Shown: positions 3,164 through 41,982 of the stretch, piece after piece
Position numbering within the stretch: the first letter of the stretch is position 1
Layout: every line of letters starts with the position of its first letter
IMG/VR virus record: IMGVR_UViG_3300005467_000006
Span: 1-43,226 of that record
DNA from: a virus
Length of the DNA: 43,226 nucleotides
Direction: 5' to 3' (one strand)
The notes under the pieces: generated by a model
Seen by the model: the letters and a program-made list of their open reading frames with translations, nothing else
Database searches by the model: none
Told to the model about the DNA's origin: nothing
Made by a program: the position numbers and the translations under genes

Positions 3164-4041
3164 TGATGAAGACGGTCGTCCGAATAGCGTCCCCAATCGT
3201 CGACCTCGATCGCGCCCGCTTGCTGAAGCAAGTGCGGACGGCATATCGCACGATGCAGTACGCGGAGGGCGAGGAAATCAAGTACCGCGATCTCGTCGCC
3301 GCGCGCAGGCTAGAGCTCGGCACGCACCTGATCGCCGCGCGCAGGATGTGGCCGGCACGCGGGCCGAACGCGAAGGGCTGGGGCGAGTTCCTCGTGGAAG
3401 CCGGGATTGATCAAGACACGGCCCTCGTCGCGATGAAGTACGCAGGTTACGTGCAGGAGCATTTCCCAGACAAGCCGGGAAAACTCCCGACCCTGCAGGA
3501 CGCCGGACTCGACAAGCGGCCTCGCAAGAATGACGAGGGCGACGAACCGAATCGCGATGCCTACTGCACGCCGGAACCGATCGTGAAGGCGCTGCCGAAG
3601 AAGCTCGGCACCGACCCATGCAGCAACCCACACAGCCTCGTGATCGCGGAGAACATGTACTCGCTCGAGACCGGGGAGGACGGGCTAAAGCTCCCGTGGA
3701 TCCGGTTGACGTACGTGAACGGCCCGTTCTCGGGGTTGCTGCCGTTCGCCGAGAAGCTCCACGAGGAGAAGTCGAAGCCTCGCGCGACGCGGACGATCAC
3801 GGGCGCGGGCTTCATGGTCAATGCTGACCACAGTCCTGAATGGTGGCGGCTGTTGATCGTGCATCTGCACATCCGGCTCGACTTCGACGATCGGCTCGAC
3901 TTCAAGCCACCGCCGGGCGTTGTGCCGAGCAAGAACGACAGGCCGCAATCACTCCTCATGGACAAGGCGTTCTGGGCCGCGTGCGATCGGCGCGCGTTTC
4001 TCAAGATGGGAACGCTCTGGATCAAACAACCGAAGGCGTAG
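3163..4041 (+). CDS. Phage Dam-type N6-adenine DNA methyltransferase-like protein with an extra N-terminal domain; motif IV reads NGPF instead of NPPY/F
   Basis: YCTPEPIV..., DPCSNP, DGL..W and YVNGPFSG follow the layout I recall for phage Dam (PF05869-type) enzymes. ATG 3163 overlaps the dnaB stop. Confidence 0.6.
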   Translation: MMKTVVRIASPIVDLDRARLLKQVRTAYRTMQYAEGEEIKYRDLVAARRLELGTHLIAARRMWPARGPNAKGWGEFLVEAGIDQDTALVAMKYAGYVQEHFPDKPGKLPTLQDAGLDKRPRKNDEGDEPNRDAYCTPEPIVKALPKKLGTDPCSNPHSLVIAENMYSLETGEDGLKLPWIRLTYVNGPFSGLLPFAEKLHEEKSKPRATRTITGAGFMVNADHSPEWWRLLIVHLHIRLDFDDRLDFKPPPGVVPSKNDRPQSLLMDKAFWAACDRRAFLKMGTLWIKQPKA

Positions 4042-5102: not shown

Positions 5103-5314
5103 AGCGCGAACGCGACACGCACGAGCGGTTTCGCGGGGCTCGAGGTGGCCGGCTTTCGCGTGCGGACGCCGTGCAGCAAAGCATCAAGCTCGCGATCGAC
5201 GAGGTCGAGCTCGCGATCGCGGCGCACGACGTGAAGCGTGCGCGCATCCACGCGTCGATCGCGAGGCGCCTGCTCGGCGAGGCGCTCGCACAGATCCAGA
5301 AGGACCGCACGTGA
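5099..5314 (+). CDS. Hypothetical protein
   Basis: GTG 5099 overlaps the upstream stop (GTGA). Helical-looking 71 aa. Confidence 0.5.
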   Translation: MKRERDTHERFRGARGGRLSRADAVQQSIKLAIDEVELAIAAHDVKRARIHASIARRLLGEALAQIQKDRT

Positions 5315-38720: not shown

Positions 38721-38950
38721 CGCTGGCCTCCGTACGCGAGGGCGCCGGGCCCGACGTTGGCCTCCGACCGCGCCGTGCCCCACGCGTACCAAATCGCGCG
38801 CGAGTCGAGCTGCTCTGCCTCAGCCTTCACGAGATCGACGTCGGCCAATGCTGTTTCGTGGTCGACGTACGGACCGGCGACGAGCGCGCGGCGACCGCCG
38901 TCCTCACAGGACACGTAGTAGTAGCCAGGACGCGGATCCGGCGCGATCAT
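38717..38950 (-). CDS. Hypothetical protein (77 aa)
   Basis: ATGA coupling at 38950. Confidence 0.55.
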   Translation of the reverse strand: MIAPDPRPGYYYVSCEDGGRRALVAGPYVDHETALADVDLVKAEAEQLDSRAIWYAWGTARSEANVGPGALAYGGQR

Positions 38951-39162
38951 CGGCCCACCGTCCCCGCCGCGGCGCGCGCTGCTGCGACGAGCTGCTCGGC
39001 GACACGATCGAACGGTGCGACCGAGCCGGTCGGAATGCGACCCGCGTTGATCAGCGCGCGGATCGAGAGCCCGACGCCGAGCGCGTCGCCGATATCGACG
39101 GTGACGGTGATCGGTTCTGCGGCGGACACGAGTACGGGCGCCTGCACATTCCGGAGTGCCAT
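38947..39162 (-). CDS. Hypothetical protein (71 aa)
   Basis: ATG ORF with GC3 bias. Confidence 0.6.
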   Translation of the reverse strand: MALRNVQAPVLVSAAEPITVTVDIGDALGVGLSIRALINAGRIPTGSVAPFDRVAEQLVAAARAAAGTVGR

Positions 39163-39165
39163 GGT

Positions 39166-39231
39166 CTAGCGCCCCGTCCGATCGCTGTGCGATCCGGCGT
39201 GACCCGGCGGCAACGTGCACGCGCGCGGAGC
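39166..39231 (-). pseudogene. 3' remnant (21 codons + TAG) of the IS-interrupted first gene of the leftward early operon
   Basis: After conceptual removal of the IS plus one target-duplication copy, this segment is in frame with 40865..41014 and stops 3 nt before the next ATG. Confidence 0.5.
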
Positions 39232-39239
39232 GTTCGATC
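39232..39239. repeat. Target-site duplication, left copy (GTTCGATC)
   Basis: The identical 8-mer is at 40865..40872, immediately outside both inverted repeats. Confidence 0.8.
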
Positions 39240-39252
39240 CATGCTTATCCGC

Positions 39253-39281
39253 TTGACACCACCGGCACCCGTTGCTAGTGT
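39253..39281 (+). promoter_or_regulatory. Sigma70-like promoter inside IRL (TTGACA-17 nt-TAGTGT) followed by an AAGGAGA RBS
   Basis: Read directly. Drives 39307 onward. Confidence 0.5.
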
Positions 39282-39306
39282 ATAGGCACAAGGAGATATC
39301 AAGACC

Positions 39307-39579
39307 ATGAGCGAGTACATGTTTGGCGTGTCGCGTCAGAAGCCCACGCGTAAGGCCGCGAAAAAGATGGAGCAGATCGCCAAGCGGCACGGCGCCTATC
39401 TCGTCGAGGGCACCTTCCCGGGCGACGGCTACAAGCGCTGGTTTGCGGGCCCCAATCTCGGACACCCCTTCGATCGCGCGATGTCCAAGGCCGTCCACGA
39501 CGACCTCGTCAAGGCCGGTATCTATCTCGACACCGACAGCGATTACCCGCTGGCGCCTGCGCACATGGCCAAGCAATGA
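39307..39579 (+). CDS. IS passenger ORF 1, hypothetical (90 aa)
   Basis: AAGGAGA RBS, ATG start, strong GC3 bias. Confidence 0.7.
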   Translation: MSEYMFGVSRQKPTRKAAKKMEQIAKRHGAYLVEGTFPGDGYKRWFAGPNLGHPFDRAMSKAVHDDLVKAGIYLDTDSDYPLAPAHMAKQ

Positions 39580-39812
39580 GCGACGTGGTGAGCGGCGACT
39601 ACGCCTATCACGCTGGCCAGCGGGCCACGCGTCGAAAGCTCCATCGGCTGTTGGAGTCGAGCGGCGCGGGATGGTGGTGGTATGTCTCGGCCGATATCGT
39701 GCTCCGCGATGCGTGTGAGATCGCAAACGCGCTGAACGATCGTGACCTGTGGGTGTTGATCGATCGCGTGTACGCGAAGGGCGACCCGTGGCCCTGGCCC
39801 GAGGAGGACTGA
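39576..39812 (+). CDS. IS passenger ORF 2, hypothetical Trp-rich protein (78 aa)
   Basis: ATGA coupling at 39576. The stop lies 1 nt before the transposase GTG. Confidence 0.6.
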   Translation: MSDVVSGDYAYHAGQRATRRKLHRLLESSGAGWWWYVSADIVLRDACEIANALNDRDLWVLIDRVYAKGDPWPWPEED

Positions 39813-39813
39813 G

Positions 39814-40842
39814 GTGGAGGACTTCGCCGCCAAGTTTCCCGAATCGCTGCCAGAGTTTCAGCGGATGTTTCCCGACGATCTCGCGTGCGCTCGCTACCTG
39901 GAATCGGTGCGCTGGCGCGACGGATTCGAGTGCCCTCACTGCAAGACTACCGCCGCACCCATCCGCCCGTCGCGGATCTACGTCCTGCGCTGCAAGGGCT
40001 GCAAGCGTGACGTCTCGCTGATCGCTGGCACCGTCATGGAGCGCACTCACACACCGCTCTCCACGTGGTTTTGGGCGGCATACCTCGTCTGCTCGCTGAC
40101 ACCTGGCATGAGTGCCGTCCAGTTGCAGCGCCAGCTCGGTCTCAGCCGGTACGAGACCGCCTTTCAGATCCTGCACAAGCTCCGGTCCGCCATGGTCCGC
40201 ACGTCCGGCCCGATCGGCTTGCGTACGCACGTCGAAGTTGACGAGACCTACGTTGGCGGACGCACGCGCGGCAAGGGTCGCGGCGTCACCGATCAAGCGA
40301 TTGTGATTGGCGCAGTTGAAGTGAAACAAAGGAAAGTCGAGAAGATCGACAGCGAAGAGAACTATCGCCATAGCAAGAGCAAGCCACGGCGAGGCGGACG
40401 CTATGCGGGACGGCTTCGCCTTGCGGTGATTCTCGATCGCACAGCCAAGTCGTGCACTGGTTTCGTTTCCGCCAACGTCGATACCCTCACCGAGATGGTC
40501 GTCACTGACGCGCATCAGGGGTACGCCGGATTGGCGAAGCTCGGGTATCAGCATCTCGCGGTTGCCGAGCGCGGTGAGCCCGAAGTCGCCGAGGACTACC
40601 TGCCAATCATCCATCTCGTTTTCTCCAACCTGAAGTCGTGGCTCAACGGGACGCACCACGGGGTCTCTCCTGCGCATTTGCAGGCATACCTGAACGAGTT
40701 CGCGTTCCGATTCAATCGGCGCTTCTACCCCTTTAACTCGTTCCGCTCGCTCTTGGGTTTGAGCGTCGATACCGAGTCGCCTACCTACGCCGAATTGTAT
40801 GATGGTGATTGGGAGCATCCTGGCACTAGCGGTGTGTCGTAG
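39814..40842 (+). CDS. tnp: IS1595-family (ISXO2-like) DDE transposase
   Basis: N-terminal zinc ribbon CPHC...CKGC. VEVDETYVGG, VVTDAHQGY and YLNEFAFRFNRR motifs (D, D, E regions) typical of this family. Confidence 0.85.
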   Translation: MEDFAAKFPESLPEFQRMFPDDLACARYLESVRWRDGFECPHCKTTAAPIRPSRIYVLRCKGCKRDVSLIAGTVMERTHTPLSTWFWAAYLVCSLTPGMSAVQLQRQLGLSRYETAFQILHKLRSAMVRTSGPIGLRTHVEVDETYVGGRTRGKGRGVTDQAIVIGAVEVKQRKVEKIDSEENYRHSKSKPRRGGRYAGRLRLAVILDRTAKSCTGFVSANVDTLTEMVVTDAHQGYAGLAKLGYQHLAVAERGEPEVAEDYLPIIHLVFSNLKSWLNGTHHGVSPAHLQAYLNEFAFRFNRRFYPFNSFRSLLGLSVDTESPTYAELYDGDWEHPGTSGVS

Positions 40843-40864
40843 TGGTGTTAACCGGACAAGCATG

Positions 40865-40872
40865 GTTCGATC
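40865..40872. repeat. Target-site duplication, right copy (GTTCGATC)
   Basis: See the left copy. Confidence 0.8.
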
Positions 40873-41014
40873 CGCGGTACGCGAAGATCCGCCGGCAGCG
40901 TCGCGTGACCGATGGCATCTCCTCGAACGGCTGCGCGTCGAAGGTGCTGTGTCCGGCGCGGATGACCGCGCTGACGACGTCGAACTCGTCCCCACCTGAT
41001 TTCTCGTTCGCCAT
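40865..41014 (-). pseudogene. 5' part (50 codons) of the first gene downstream of the predicted PL, interrupted by the IS; as it stands the reading frame runs on into the IS to a TAG at 40826
   Basis: ATG 41014 lies immediately downstream of the operator/promoter block. GC3 bias. The frame crosses IRR. Confidence 0.5.
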
Positions 41015-41016
41015 AT

Positions 41017-41033
41017 GTTCGAGATACTCGAAC
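41017..41033. promoter_or_regulatory. Operator OL1: perfect 17-bp palindrome GTTCGAG-ATA-CTCGAAC
   Basis: Read directly. Same architecture as the sites at 41058 and 41764. Confidence 0.65.
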
Positions 41034-41050
41034 ACCCTGACAAACGTCAA
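41021..41050 (-). promoter_or_regulatory. Predicted leftward early promoter PL (TTGACG-18 nt-TATCTC), -10 ends 6 nt before ATG 41014
   Basis: Minus-strand reading TTGACGtttgtcagggtgttcgagTATCTCgaacatATG. OL1 overlaps the -10. Confidence 0.45.
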
Positions 41051-41054
41051 CGAC

Positions 41055-41249
41055 TCAGTTCGAATCTTTCGAACACGAGCCCGAGCGCACGACCGAATCC
41101 CATGCTTCGGCGCGGAGTTCTCGGTAGAGATCCCGGTCGCGGTTTGCGATCAGGCACATCAGTGCGACCCACTCCGCCTTCTCGGCGTTGCCATGCACTC
41201 GCTTGGTTGCGGGATAGACCAGGTCAGTCGCGGCTGCGTCGTTCTTCAC
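41055..41249 (-). CDS. Hypothetical 64-aa protein located between the cI-like gene and PL (lysogeny-expressed moron position)
   Basis: GTG start with an AGAGAGG RBS-like element. GC3 bias. Co-oriented with the cI-like gene. Confidence 0.5.
   Translation of the reverse strand: MKNDAAATDLVYPATKRVHGNAEKAEWVALMCLIANRDRDLYRELRAEAWDSVVRSGSCSKDSN
41058..41074. promoter_or_regulatory. Operator OL2: perfect-arm 17-bp palindrome GTTCGAA-TCT-TTCGAAC
   Basis: Read directly. Its centre is 41 bp from the OL1 centre, and it overlaps the last codons of the 41055..41249 ORF. Confidence 0.65.
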
Positions 41250-41344
41250 TCGGTATCGCCTCTCTTCGGCTACGCCGTAATGAAGTACTTATAGCAGCGC
41301 GATCTGACCCCTCGGGGAAGACGATCCGGAGTGGCGCGACGACG

Positions 41345-41707
41345 CTAGCGATTCGTTCCGGTCTTGCGCGCGGCTGCAACAATTTGCTGCTCGTAGATCG
41401 CGCGAGCTCGTTCGAGTAGGCGGCCGCGTTCGACGTCATCGAGTCGGTCCCAAATTCCGAACAGCTCGCTCGCGTCATTCGACAGGATCGGTGGAAGCGG
41501 CGGGTCCCAGCCAAGCGCCTTGTGGATCGACGGCAGACCGACGCACTCGTTCGTCTTGCCGTTCAGCAAGTCGCTGATCGTGGATCGGCCGACGCGAGAT
41601 TCGCGGGCGAGATCTGCTCGGTTCCACTTCTTCTCTACGAGACGCACCTCGACGCGATTTCTCCAATCGTCGTCAACCACATACGAGGTGCCCTTGTTAC
41701 GAGGCAT
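41345..41707 (-). CDS. XRE-family HTH repressor (cI-like)
   Basis: HTH WNRADLARESRVGRSTISDLLNGK. Divergent from a cro-like gene across an operator-containing 83-bp spacer. Confidence 0.8.
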   Translation of the reverse strand: MPRNKGTSYVVDDDWRNRVEVRLVEKKWNRADLARESRVGRSTISDLLNGKTNECVGLPSIHKALGWDPPLPPILSNDASELFGIWDRLDDVERGRLLERARAIYEQQIVAAARKTGTNR

Positions 41708-41718
41708 GCCTCATCCTG

Positions 41719-41746
41719 GTTCGAGATCTGTCCGCGTAGTTCGAAC
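41719..41746. promoter_or_regulatory. Operator half-sites in the cI/cro spacer (GTTCGAG at 41719; GTTCGAAC at 41739; possible degenerate 17-mer 41730-41746)
   Basis: Read directly. Arms match the operator consensus only on one side. Confidence 0.4.
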
Positions 41747-41753
41747 ACCCCAC

Positions 41754-41783
41754 TTGACGCCCAGTTCGAAATAATCGAACAGT
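41754..41783 (+). promoter_or_regulatory. Predicted rightward early promoter PR (TTGACG-18 nt-AACAGT), -10 ends 7 nt before GTG 41791
   Basis: Same -35 hexamer and spacer length as PL. OR lies in the spacer and overlaps the -10. Confidence 0.4.
41764..41780. promoter_or_regulatory. Operator OR: GTTCGAA-ATA-ATCGAAC (one arm mismatch)
   Basis: Read directly. Confidence 0.6.
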
Positions 41784-41790
41784 TGGCTTC

Positions 41791-41982
41791 GTGAGTCTCG
41801 CAAAAAATATCGTCCGAGCCCGGGAGAAGGCGGGGCTCTCACAGGCCCAGCTCGCCAAGAAGCTCGGGAAGTCACGATCTTCGGTCAACGAGTACGAGTC
41901 CGGCGAGCACGAACCGAAGCTCGACCTGCTCGTCAAGATCGCGAAGGTCACCGGCGTGACCGTCGAGGAGCTGGTGGCATGA
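41791..41982 (+). CDS. XRE-family HTH protein (cro-like)
   Basis: 63 aa. HTH LSQAQLAKKLGKSRSSVNEYESG. GTG start. Confidence 0.8.
   Translation: MSLAKNIVRAREKAGLSQAQLAKKLGKSRSSVNEYESGEHEPKLDLLVKIAKVTGVTVEELVA

Follow-up and report, generated by a model that had tools for sequence, protein, structure and literature searches.

Why would a phage carry an insertion sequence (IS) that itself carries two small genes besides its transposase, and do those genes belong to the element at all? The locus that raises this question lies at positions 39240-40864 of the IMG/VR virus record IMGVR_UViG_3300005467_000006, the whole of which (43,226 nt, hereafter the window) was analysed and supplies the coordinates given here. 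There, two small open reading frames (ORF1 and ORF2) and an IS1595-family transposase gene lie in a row between terminal inverted repeats (IRs). We favour, at a probability of roughly 0.7, the reading that this is an intact IS1595-family transporter IS (tIS), related to ISAcr1 and resident in a temperate phage, and that it belongs to a phage-dwelling branch with a slot for small genes. IS that carry passenger genes are already known as a concept (PMC7986276), and the window element is a new IS of this known kind. Its relatives are referred to below by locus numbers (L-numbers) specific to this analysis.

An intact IS1595-family element

The element is 1625 bp long, holds three genes between its terminal IRs and is laid out, with its flanking duplications, as follows.

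39232-39239, no strand: left target-site duplication (TSD), 8 bp, GTTCGATC
39240-39280, plus strand: left inverted repeat (IRL); 23-nt core at 39240-39262, CATGCTTATCCGCTTGACACCAC; inner block GCTAGTG at 39274-39280
39254-39282, plus strand: promoter-like site within IRL; TTGACA at 39254-39259, 17 nt, TAGTGT at 39277-39282
39290-39295, plus strand: Shine-Dalgarno (SD) sequence AAGGAG for ORF1, 11 nt upstream of its ATG
39307-39579, plus strand: cargo ORF1, 90 aa, predicted small alpha/beta protein of a phage protein family
39576-39812, plus strand: cargo ORF2, 78 aa, lineage-specific orphan, probably helical
39814-40842, plus strand: IS1595-family transposase, 342 aa, GTG start preceded by GAGGAGGA
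40824-40864, minus strand: right inverted repeat (IRR); 23-nt core at 40842-40864; the transposase ORF ends within it
40865-40872, no strand: right TSD, 8 bp, GTTCGATC, a perfect copy of the left one

The two repeats agree at 20 of 23 positions over their cores and at 30 of 41 when extended (39240-39280 against 40824-40864), GCTAGTG forming a second conserved block in the extended repeats, and IRR reads TTAACA at the position of the TTGACA in IRL. Between them the genes are tightly packed: the ORF1 stop and the ORF2 start overlap as ATGA, the ORF2 stop lies 1 nt ahead of the transposase GTG, and the transposase TAG (40840-40842) shares the first base of the 23-nt IRR. The initial annotation of this DNA had described the same 23-bp repeats, a perfect 8-bp direct repeat around them, a transposase stop codon at IRR and two coupled ORFs of 90 and 78 aa, the second ending 1 nt before the GTG; all of these positions were reproduced, and the repeats proved longer than it had claimed.

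A 21-nt version of the IR pattern, with up to three mismatches allowed, occurs in exactly two places in the window and in none of 100 shuffled sequences, and the combination of direct and inverted repeats occurs once. In random 43-kb sequences, 2 of 30 (∼7%) gave an IR of at least 18/23 beside an 8-bp repeat, and the local pattern taken by itself is suggestive, short of proof. The element boundaries are instead proven by its relatives, which share the same ends and have duplications of their own. More than 80 relatives carry these ends, with the family consensus CATGCcTATCCGGTTgaCaCccAcacccaCta..t.TAG. The 40 perfect TSDs read from loci L008-L122 and the window give a weakly palindromic target consensus, GTTYGAAC, to which the window duplication GTTCGATC conforms at 7 of 8 positions; the chromosomal relative L072 is flanked by the very same 8-mer. 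Furthermore, the same phage with the same insertion has been assembled from three samples (the source of the window, JGI and ENA) at an identity of at least 99.9%, and the junctions are therefore not an assembly artefact. The feature is a real, intact IS1595-family element that is recently or was once mobile.

Members of the IS1595 family are characterised by an 8-bp TSD, an N-terminal zinc finger, a DDE_Tnp_IS1595 domain and a single transposase gene, with the zinc ribbon present in all groups except IS1016 (PMC8101967). The family assignment made initially was upheld by profile searches as well as by the 8-bp duplication: the transposase matches Pfam DDE_Tnp_IS1595 (PF12762) at 4.1e-29 over positions 3-153 of 153, Zn_ribbon_IS1595 (PF12760) at 6.8e-10, above its cut-off, and the NCBIfam model NF033547 for IS1595-family transposases at 3.7e-55 (187 bits against a cut-off of 75). 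Across the transposase alignment the invariant features are CxxC...CxxC, D (EVDET), D (VTD), H-x6-K (IHLVFSNLK) and NEFxFRFNRR, and the zinc-ribbon motif CPHC...CKGC is conserved. The window element thus has the catalytic domain, the zinc ribbon, the 8-bp TSD and the terminal IRs of the family; in place of a single gene, two additional ORFs under purifying selection lie between the IRs. Since these passenger genes, ORF1 and ORF2, sit inside the IRs, between IRL and the transposase gene, the element is a tIS and not a minimal IS. At a finer level, the ends of the element and its family (CATGCTTATC) and the transposase motifs IHLVFSNLK (H, and K at +7) and NEFAFRFNRR (E, R+4, R+7) can be set beside the ISfinder criteria of the ISSod11 group (ends nnnGCnTATC, DDH(7)K and E-R4-R7), to which the element may belong.

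A hypervariable cargo slot tied to phage residence

The closest named relative is ISAcr1, found on plasmids and chromosomes of Acidiphilium, whose transposase is 60% identical at the amino acid level over 97% of its length. A copy of ISAcr1 measures 1080 bp, has the TSD GAATCAGC and begins with the left end CTTGCCTATCCGGTTGACTCCCATACCTACTAGATCTAGTGTTGGGC, which leads directly into the transposase ATG; the right end has the same architecture. Its IRL contains TTGACT-17-TAGTGT, the ATG follows 5 nt later, and there is no other gene. The two elements are alike in their end architecture (C.TGCCTATCCGGTTGAC...CTAGTGT), their 8-bp TSD and a left-end TTGAC-17-TAGTGT, and unlike in that ISAcr1 encodes a transposase only and is multi-copy in bacterial replicons, whereas the window element has a further 507 bp of coding DNA and is found in a phage. 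Because ISAcr1, with the same ends and duplication size, has its transposase alone, ORF1 and ORF2 are best read as cargo.

This division between short and long elements extends to the family as a whole. A scan of IMG/VR with the transposase returned 28 loci at 57-79% identity, in nearly all of which 130-1200 bp separate the left end CATGCYTATCCGGTTGACAC... from the transposase start downstream and the right end comes after the stop, with perfect 8-bp duplications, different in sequence from locus to locus, flanking the ends. A scan of one genome per species gave 269 relatives, and the results on genomes given here rest on the best 80 of these. They come mostly from Alphaproteobacteria, where 15 to more than 20 copies can occur in a single genome, and the chromosomal multi-copy relatives are 1046-1178 bp long, encode the transposase only and have 8-bp TSDs. 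Among elements with both ends found, all 25 on viral contigs exceed 1250 bp, as against 13 of 81 in genomes (Fisher 4e-15, the copies not being independent), the other 68 copies, on bacterial genome contigs, being minimal. Each of the 25 viral elements carries 1-5 small ORFs between its left end and its transposase, and ten of the 13 long genomic elements, each of the ten on a contig of 2-32 kb, have their cargo ahead of the transposase. In a neighbour-joining tree of the transposases, cargo-bearing phage elements occupy several deep clades, while the minimal chromosomal elements fall into one derived clade with few cargo-bearing exceptions. The premise that minimal members encode the transposase only is borne out by ISAcr1 and the 68 chromosomal copies, and the reading of the two ORFs as additions inside the IRs is supported by these minimal relatives with the same ends.

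Some relatives merit separate mention. The closest one from a genome (L044; 78% transposase identity, 1546 bp, cargo-bearing) lies on a 15-kb contig, CAYGHU010000031.1, that is binned in a metagenome-assembled genome of Dehalococcoidaceae, while nearly all other relatives are from Alphaproteobacteria; it is probably a mis-binned phage contig. Two elements, L010 3227-5018 and L018 3322-5556, have good ends and non-matching flanks (no TSD), and L018 has a second repeat in left-end orientation in place of the expected right end, which suggests recombination between copies or adjacent insertions.

ORFs in the relatives were called on GC content at third codon positions (GC3) and tiling, and not with a gene finder. 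On this basis, 32 elements hold 67 ORFs between left end and transposase, most with raised GC3, which form 64 clusters at E ≤ 1e-4; with 74 more from an end-anchored scan, the total is 141 cargo ORFs in 123 clusters. Even near-sister elements differ in their cargo: between L009/L010/L011, L019/L021 and L031/L032 (transposase genes 90-92% identical) and between L024/L025 (89%), homology is limited to the first 27-190 bp and picks up again ∼6 nt ahead of the transposase ATG. Such sharp borders of homology beside closely similar transposase genes indicate a clean replacement of the cargo that is recent on the scale of transposase divergence. Hypervariability of the slot is a trait of the family as a whole, and the slot is tied to residence in phages.

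Recurrent sequences mark the borders of the cargo. Its junctions typically read GGAGGGC TGA GCC ATG (SD-stop-GCC-ATG), and the pattern T[GA]AGCC[AG]TG has 18 matches within 24.3 kb of cargo regions against five in 459 kb of flanks, a 62-fold enrichment, with two of the five outside matches lying in other IS-derived elements. On the 5′ side, within the sub-lineage to which the window element belongs, the unrelated first cargo genes of L005 (4686-4770), L226, L229 (7590-7680), L231 and L008 (2896-2980) have in common an SD and the codons M-T/S-N-Q-A/G-L/V-T before diverging fully, and since otherwise unrelated proteins share these seven codons, the 5′ border of cassette replacement here lies inside coding sequence. 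The window element diverges from these sisters directly after the SD.

Few cargo ORFs match known families. Those that do include Lar restriction alleviation proteins, helix-turn-helix (HTH) proteins, zinc-binding domains, a DUF433/DUF5615 pair, Uma2 and 14 PHROG families, and with PADLOC the cargo set gave only the models PDC-S03 and PDC-S70, one member each. A mirror case is L020 3869-6431 (the same as L198 3177-5739), in which the transposase follows directly on the left end and the cargo, a 468-aa N6/N4 DNA methylase (Pfam 2.9e-26), is on the other strand, read inward from just inside the right end; it is also the sole element with TTGACA in its right end among 32 cargo-bearing elements in which both ends could be read. 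Nested or tandem left ends within one element were seen in L019 2778-5042 (inner IRL at 3719), L034 (3388, 3666) and L231, the inner IRL of L019 being from a different sub-lineage than the outer IRL/IRR pair, and they look as if modules of IRL plus cargo can stack.

Cargo also occurs at transposase-less loci. When TSD-flanked elements in IMG/VR were anchored on the left-end pattern, 27 of 52 had no transposase (256-1191 bp), so that such mini-elements are about as frequent there as autonomous ones. Their ends and 8-bp duplications are as in autonomous elements, and 22 of the 27 have at least one called ORF and up to three. A 675-bp mini-element with a 194-aa ORF is present on five contigs (L135 199-873, L150 10734-11408, L179 7410-8084, L204 962-1636 and L216 8698-9372), and others with 1-3 ORFs each include L012 121-654, L024 952-1628 and L222 7866-9056, with a 1191-bp example holding three ORFs.

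The two cargo genes of the window element appear to have different histories. ORF1 (GC3 0.84) has 34 homologs at 48-81% identity, with F6, V8, A25, P38, G41, W45, F46, N50 and G52 invariant in the family, and is under purifying selection, with a ratio of nonsynonymous to synonymous substitution rates (dN/dS) of 0.21-0.43. Its AlphaFold2 model, built with the homolog alignment, has a confidence score (pLDDT) of 93 and a beta-alpha-beta-beta-alpha fold; Foldseek gave nothing significant for it in PDB (best E 0.045) or BFVD (best E 0.013), Pfam, NCBIfam, PHROGs and the PDB profile search gave no match, PADLOC gave none, and tblastn of ORF1 against cultured phages also gave none. In seven other contexts ORF1 homologs stand among runs of small genes of phage type, where no IS1595 transposase was called within 2.5-5 kb, and the family ends were not found at the four such loci that were scanned (L003, L004, L006 and L007). 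Synonymous divergence (dS) of ORF1 is 0.55 to the L003 homolog and 0.40 to that of L004, as against 1.05 between the transposase genes of the window and L005, and because it is the lower, ORF1 would have been captured after the split from the L005 element. Judged by its homologs, ORF1 is thus a member of an ordinary family of small phage proteins and appears to have been picked up from the phage gene pool. At L003 the homolog is followed by TAAGCCGTG, with the junction motif of the family, TAA GCC GTG, at 5268-5276; this is the sole T[GA]AGCC[AG]TG match in the 10-kb locus and could reflect either an earlier stay in an IS array or chance. There is no IRL remnant nearby, and the motif is only a hint that this homolog may be an IS remnant.

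ORF2 (GC3 0.81), by comparison, is an orphan confined to its own transposase lineage. An exhaustive HMMER search of 1.84 billion representatives found it only in L005, and a third copy is in L227; in all three occurrences it directly precedes the transposase, and the first genes ahead of it differ. Its dN/dS is 0.22 and its dS of 0.98 equals that of the transposase, while the sister elements L226, L229, L008 and L044 are without it. The AlphaFold2 model is weak (pLDDT 68) and shows three helices, the PDB profile search returned only designed helical repeats at E > 0.3, and no match was found in Pfam, NCBIfam or PHROGs. ORF2 is probably helical, a small protein passed down along with this transposase lineage. 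The statement in the initial annotation that neither ORF has recognisable domains therefore holds for both in Pfam, NCBIfam, PHROGs and PDB, with a fold search confirming it for ORF1.

Expression, exchange and competing explanations

The initial annotation credited IRL with a good TTGACA-17-TAGTGT promoter and a strong ribosome-binding site, and both claims stand only in part. The -35 hexamer TTGACA is perfect and specific to the left end; 'good' was an overstatement for a site whose TAGTGT matches TATAAT at only 3 of 6 positions, and which was not called by a consensus promoter scan because of that match. TAGTGT also lies within the conserved IR block and recurs in IRR. Similarly, AAGGAG is a strong SD, with a spacing of 11 nt to the ORF1 ATG. 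Of 33 cargo-bearing relatives, 21 have TTGAC in the IRL, and none except L020 has it in the IRR; no better support is available for a promoter reading into the cargo than this asymmetry, from which we infer that the left-end site acts as one. The leader up to the ORF1 SD is 83-92% identical to that of the sister elements L005, L226, L229 and L231. No terminator-like site was found on the plus strand of 38800-41800 and no Rfam RNA family match in 38800-41300. In the leaders of L009 (2160-2195), L010, L022, L026, L028 and L050, a conserved hairpin, GGGCGCTTCCGCCC followed by TTTGATGGAGAGACAGATG, is found between the promoter-like site and the first cargo start; it does not occur in the window element, and where present it could be an attenuator or stability element.

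The reading that we favour can be set out as follows. The ancestor would have been a 1.1-kb element with a left-end promoter driving the transposase directly, and in the phage-dwelling branch a slot between promoter or leader and transposase start would hold 1-5 small genes. In a temperate phage, the window element would have landed in the leftward operon on the repressor side, with duplication of 8 bp of the target. TTGACA-17-TAGTGT and the SD would then give rise to one mRNA for ORF1, ORF2 and the transposase, with translation coupled through the ATGA overlap and the GAGGAGGAC-TGA-G-GTG junction (SD-TGA-G-GTG), and such gene-to-gene translation would tie transposase output to cargo expression. 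The transposase must bind the same 40 bp and probably modulates the left-end promoter. Cassettes may be swapped by recombination at the conserved leader, the SD-stop-start junctions and the transposase gene, with cargo occasionally captured from phage gene arrays, as may have happened with ORF1. For the carrier phage, the cargo is most likely of benefit in the way of a moron or anti-restriction gene, and it would offset the cost of the IS. Phages are reported to tolerate IS poorly, with IS counter-selected in their genomes (PMC3429520), and a branch found in phage contigs only in cargo-bearing form is of interest in this light; a benefit from the cargo would explain the absence of minimal copies there.

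Several observations weigh against parts of this reading. ORF1 and ORF2 had no functional annotation or structural match in the searches made, and matches of anti-restriction type are confined to a handful among the 141 cargo ORFs, so that benefit to the phage is an extrapolation. The weak -10 lies in a block kept at both ends, and its conservation may reflect transposase binding and not promoter use; the spacing between SD and ORF1 is long; and the window junctions, ATGA and TGA-G-GTG, differ from the canonical TGAGCCATG form. ORF2 adjoins the transposase in each of its three occurrences, which leaves room for a role in transposition. Finally, the empty site ...GGAGCGTTCGATCCGCGG... was not found, its exact 24-nt sequence having 0 matches in JGI metagenomes, and a search of IMG/VR with the neighbouring proteins (the 120-aa HTH and a 71-aa protein) did not find a related phage.

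A more ambitious extension of the favoured reading is that phage-resident elements form a cassette platform that captures, expresses and swaps small phage genes, anti-restriction genes included, and that spreads together with cargo-only derivatives among unrelated phages. Its 5′ adapter would be the leader plus SD or the shared MTNQALT start, and its 3′ adapter the SD-stop-GCC-ATG junction. We regard this as tentative and would sooner bet against it than for it. If true, it would amount to integron-like gene shuffling built on a DDE transposase and translational coupling, and would account for the success of this IS lineage in phages, whose genomes otherwise select against IS (PMC3429520).

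The alternative that survives best, though we consider it unlikely overall, is that ORF1, ORF2 or both are accessory or regulatory proteins of transposition (an inhibitor, a target selector or a DNA-binding co-factor) and not cargo. Both are translationally coupled to the transposase, and ORF2 is a predicted helical protein restricted to this transposase lineage, always last before the transposase in three elements, with a dS equal to that of the transposase that points to co-inheritance. However, minimal relatives with the same ends lack such a gene altogether and still reach at least 15 copies per genome, unrelated ORFs fill that position ahead of the closest transposases (L008, L044, L226 and L229; 78-80%), cargo is unrelated from element to element, and ORF1 homologs occur far from any transposase in seven contexts. 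An accessory role is thus unlikely for ORF1 and possible for ORF2.

It is improbable, in our estimation, that the upstream ORFs are translated spacers that gate transposase synthesis by coupling, with a protein sequence that is largely irrelevant. The tight coupling at junctions across the family, the extreme diversity of slot sequences and the N-terminal adapter MTNQALT shared by unrelated first ORFs would all fit such a role; the dN/dS of 0.2-0.4 for ORF1 and ORF2, the confident fold of ORF1 and its conserved family outside any IS, the recognisable enzymes or Lar among the cargo, and the retention of ORFs in cargo-only mini-elements without a transposase do not.

Still less credit is due to the suggestion that drift has fixed an IS copy that is immobile and decaying, with neutral cargo hitch-hiking in it. 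No second copy and no empty site were found for the exact element, the insertion is fixed in all three assemblies, and the 23-nt IR has three mismatches. On the other side, all three ORFs are intact with coding-type GC3 and are under purifying selection, the catalytic residues are intact, the TSD is perfect, and the IRL/IRR asymmetry falls at the same positions across the family, which is not decay. That the IR/TSD pattern is a coincidence or an assembly chimera, with a transposase gene merely beside two phage genes, we dismiss: ∼7% of random 43-kb sequences do give an 8-bp repeat around an IR of at least 18/23, but the IR here is 20/23, has the sequence found at the ends of more than 80 relatives that have TSDs of their own, arose in none of 100 shuffles and has identical junctions in independent assemblies.

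Carrier phage and comparison with known systems

The initial placement of the element in a phage was correct: the window encodes a terminase large subunit, a DnaB helicase, a large serine recombinase (integrase) and a ParB-like protein, together with a divergent HTH pair 0.5 kb from the insertion, repressor-like (120 aa, 41345-41707, minus strand) and Cro-like (63 aa, ∼41791-41982, plus strand). The proximity of this pair places the IS in a lysogeny-side operon, and the element is oriented opposite to the leftward operon downstream of the repressor-like gene. One further feature, next to the right end, is the probable target of the insertion.

40826-41050, minus strand: probable target gene, small phage ORF of 74 aa, its 3′ end running into IRR

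The part of this ORF outside the IS has a coding-type GC content by codon position (0.60/0.42/0.83), and with the IS removed in silico its frame runs to a stop 3 nt before the ATG of the next gene. For these two reasons the insertion probably truncated a small minus-strand phage gene. The ORF is called as a gene in the JGI assembly, and the reconstructed pre-insertion ORF had no homologs. An 18-nt inverted repeat (41016-41033/41058-41075) lies between a 64-aa gene and the interrupted ORF.

The terminase of the window phage has only distant matches, in phages of Proteobacteria. Megablast of the element with both flanks found nothing among INPHARED phages and PLSDB plasmids, and tblastn of the transposase against cultured phages gave only transposases at ≤31% identity. 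Exact-protein look-ups of both neighbours returned this phage with its IS and, besides it, nothing except a 528-bp contig ending 33 bp short of the junction.

On a practical level, this part of the window should be annotated as a new IS1595-family tIS, related to ISAcr1, in an immunity-side operon and probably truncating a small phage gene. More generally, the slot turns over far faster than the transposase, and both a DNA methylase and an anti-restriction gene of the Lar type are among its contents. Should the cargo be of help to the phage, these elements would serve to carry small accessory or counter-defence genes from one phage to another, and the slots, with more than 120 uncharacterised small phage proteins, would offer a ready list for screening. 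In addition, the conserved adapters point to a simple design, found in nature, for gene cassettes that are driven by a promoter and coupled in translation. In the literature searched, we found no description of phage-borne, cargo-carrying IS1595 elements, nor of a phage-restricted branch, a coupled hypervariable ORF array with adapters or cargo-only mini-elements.

The nearest comparison is with other tIS of the same family. Passenger-bearing IS1595-family members are said to have been described by Siguier et al. in 2009 in the ISPna2+ and ISNwi1+ subgroups, and we know of no passenger-bearing subgroup in the ISSod11 group. Such tIS resemble the window element in being IS-sized, with IRs, an 8-bp TSD and passenger genes not obviously needed for transposition; the window branch differs in having a promoter-proximal array of very small, hypervariable, coupled ORFs and in residing in phages. 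Integron cassette arrays likewise combine a fixed promoter at one end with variable, promoterless small ORFs and recurrent boundary sequences. Unlike integrons, the window element has no integrase or attC; its junctions are SD-stop-start sequences of 9-16 nt with no Rfam match, and the array moves by DDE transposition. Phage morons are also extra genes with their own promoter, placed between phage genes or within them, and the window unit shares with them a position on the lysogeny side of a temperate phage and a plausible benefit to phage or lysogen. A moron, however, consists of promoter, gene and terminator and has no mobility of its own, whereas the window unit has IRs, a TSD and a transposase, together with a weak promoter-like site and no terminator-like site on the plus strand of the interval scanned. 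Finally, the transposase-less mini-elements of this family resemble the MPMEs of mycobacteriophages, ultra-small mobile elements of a few hundred bp that are bounded by IRs, contain one small ORF and occur scattered over phage genomes. MPMEs have other ends and no known cognate transposase; the mini-elements described here, in contrast, share their ends and 8-bp TSD with an autonomous IS1595-type partner.

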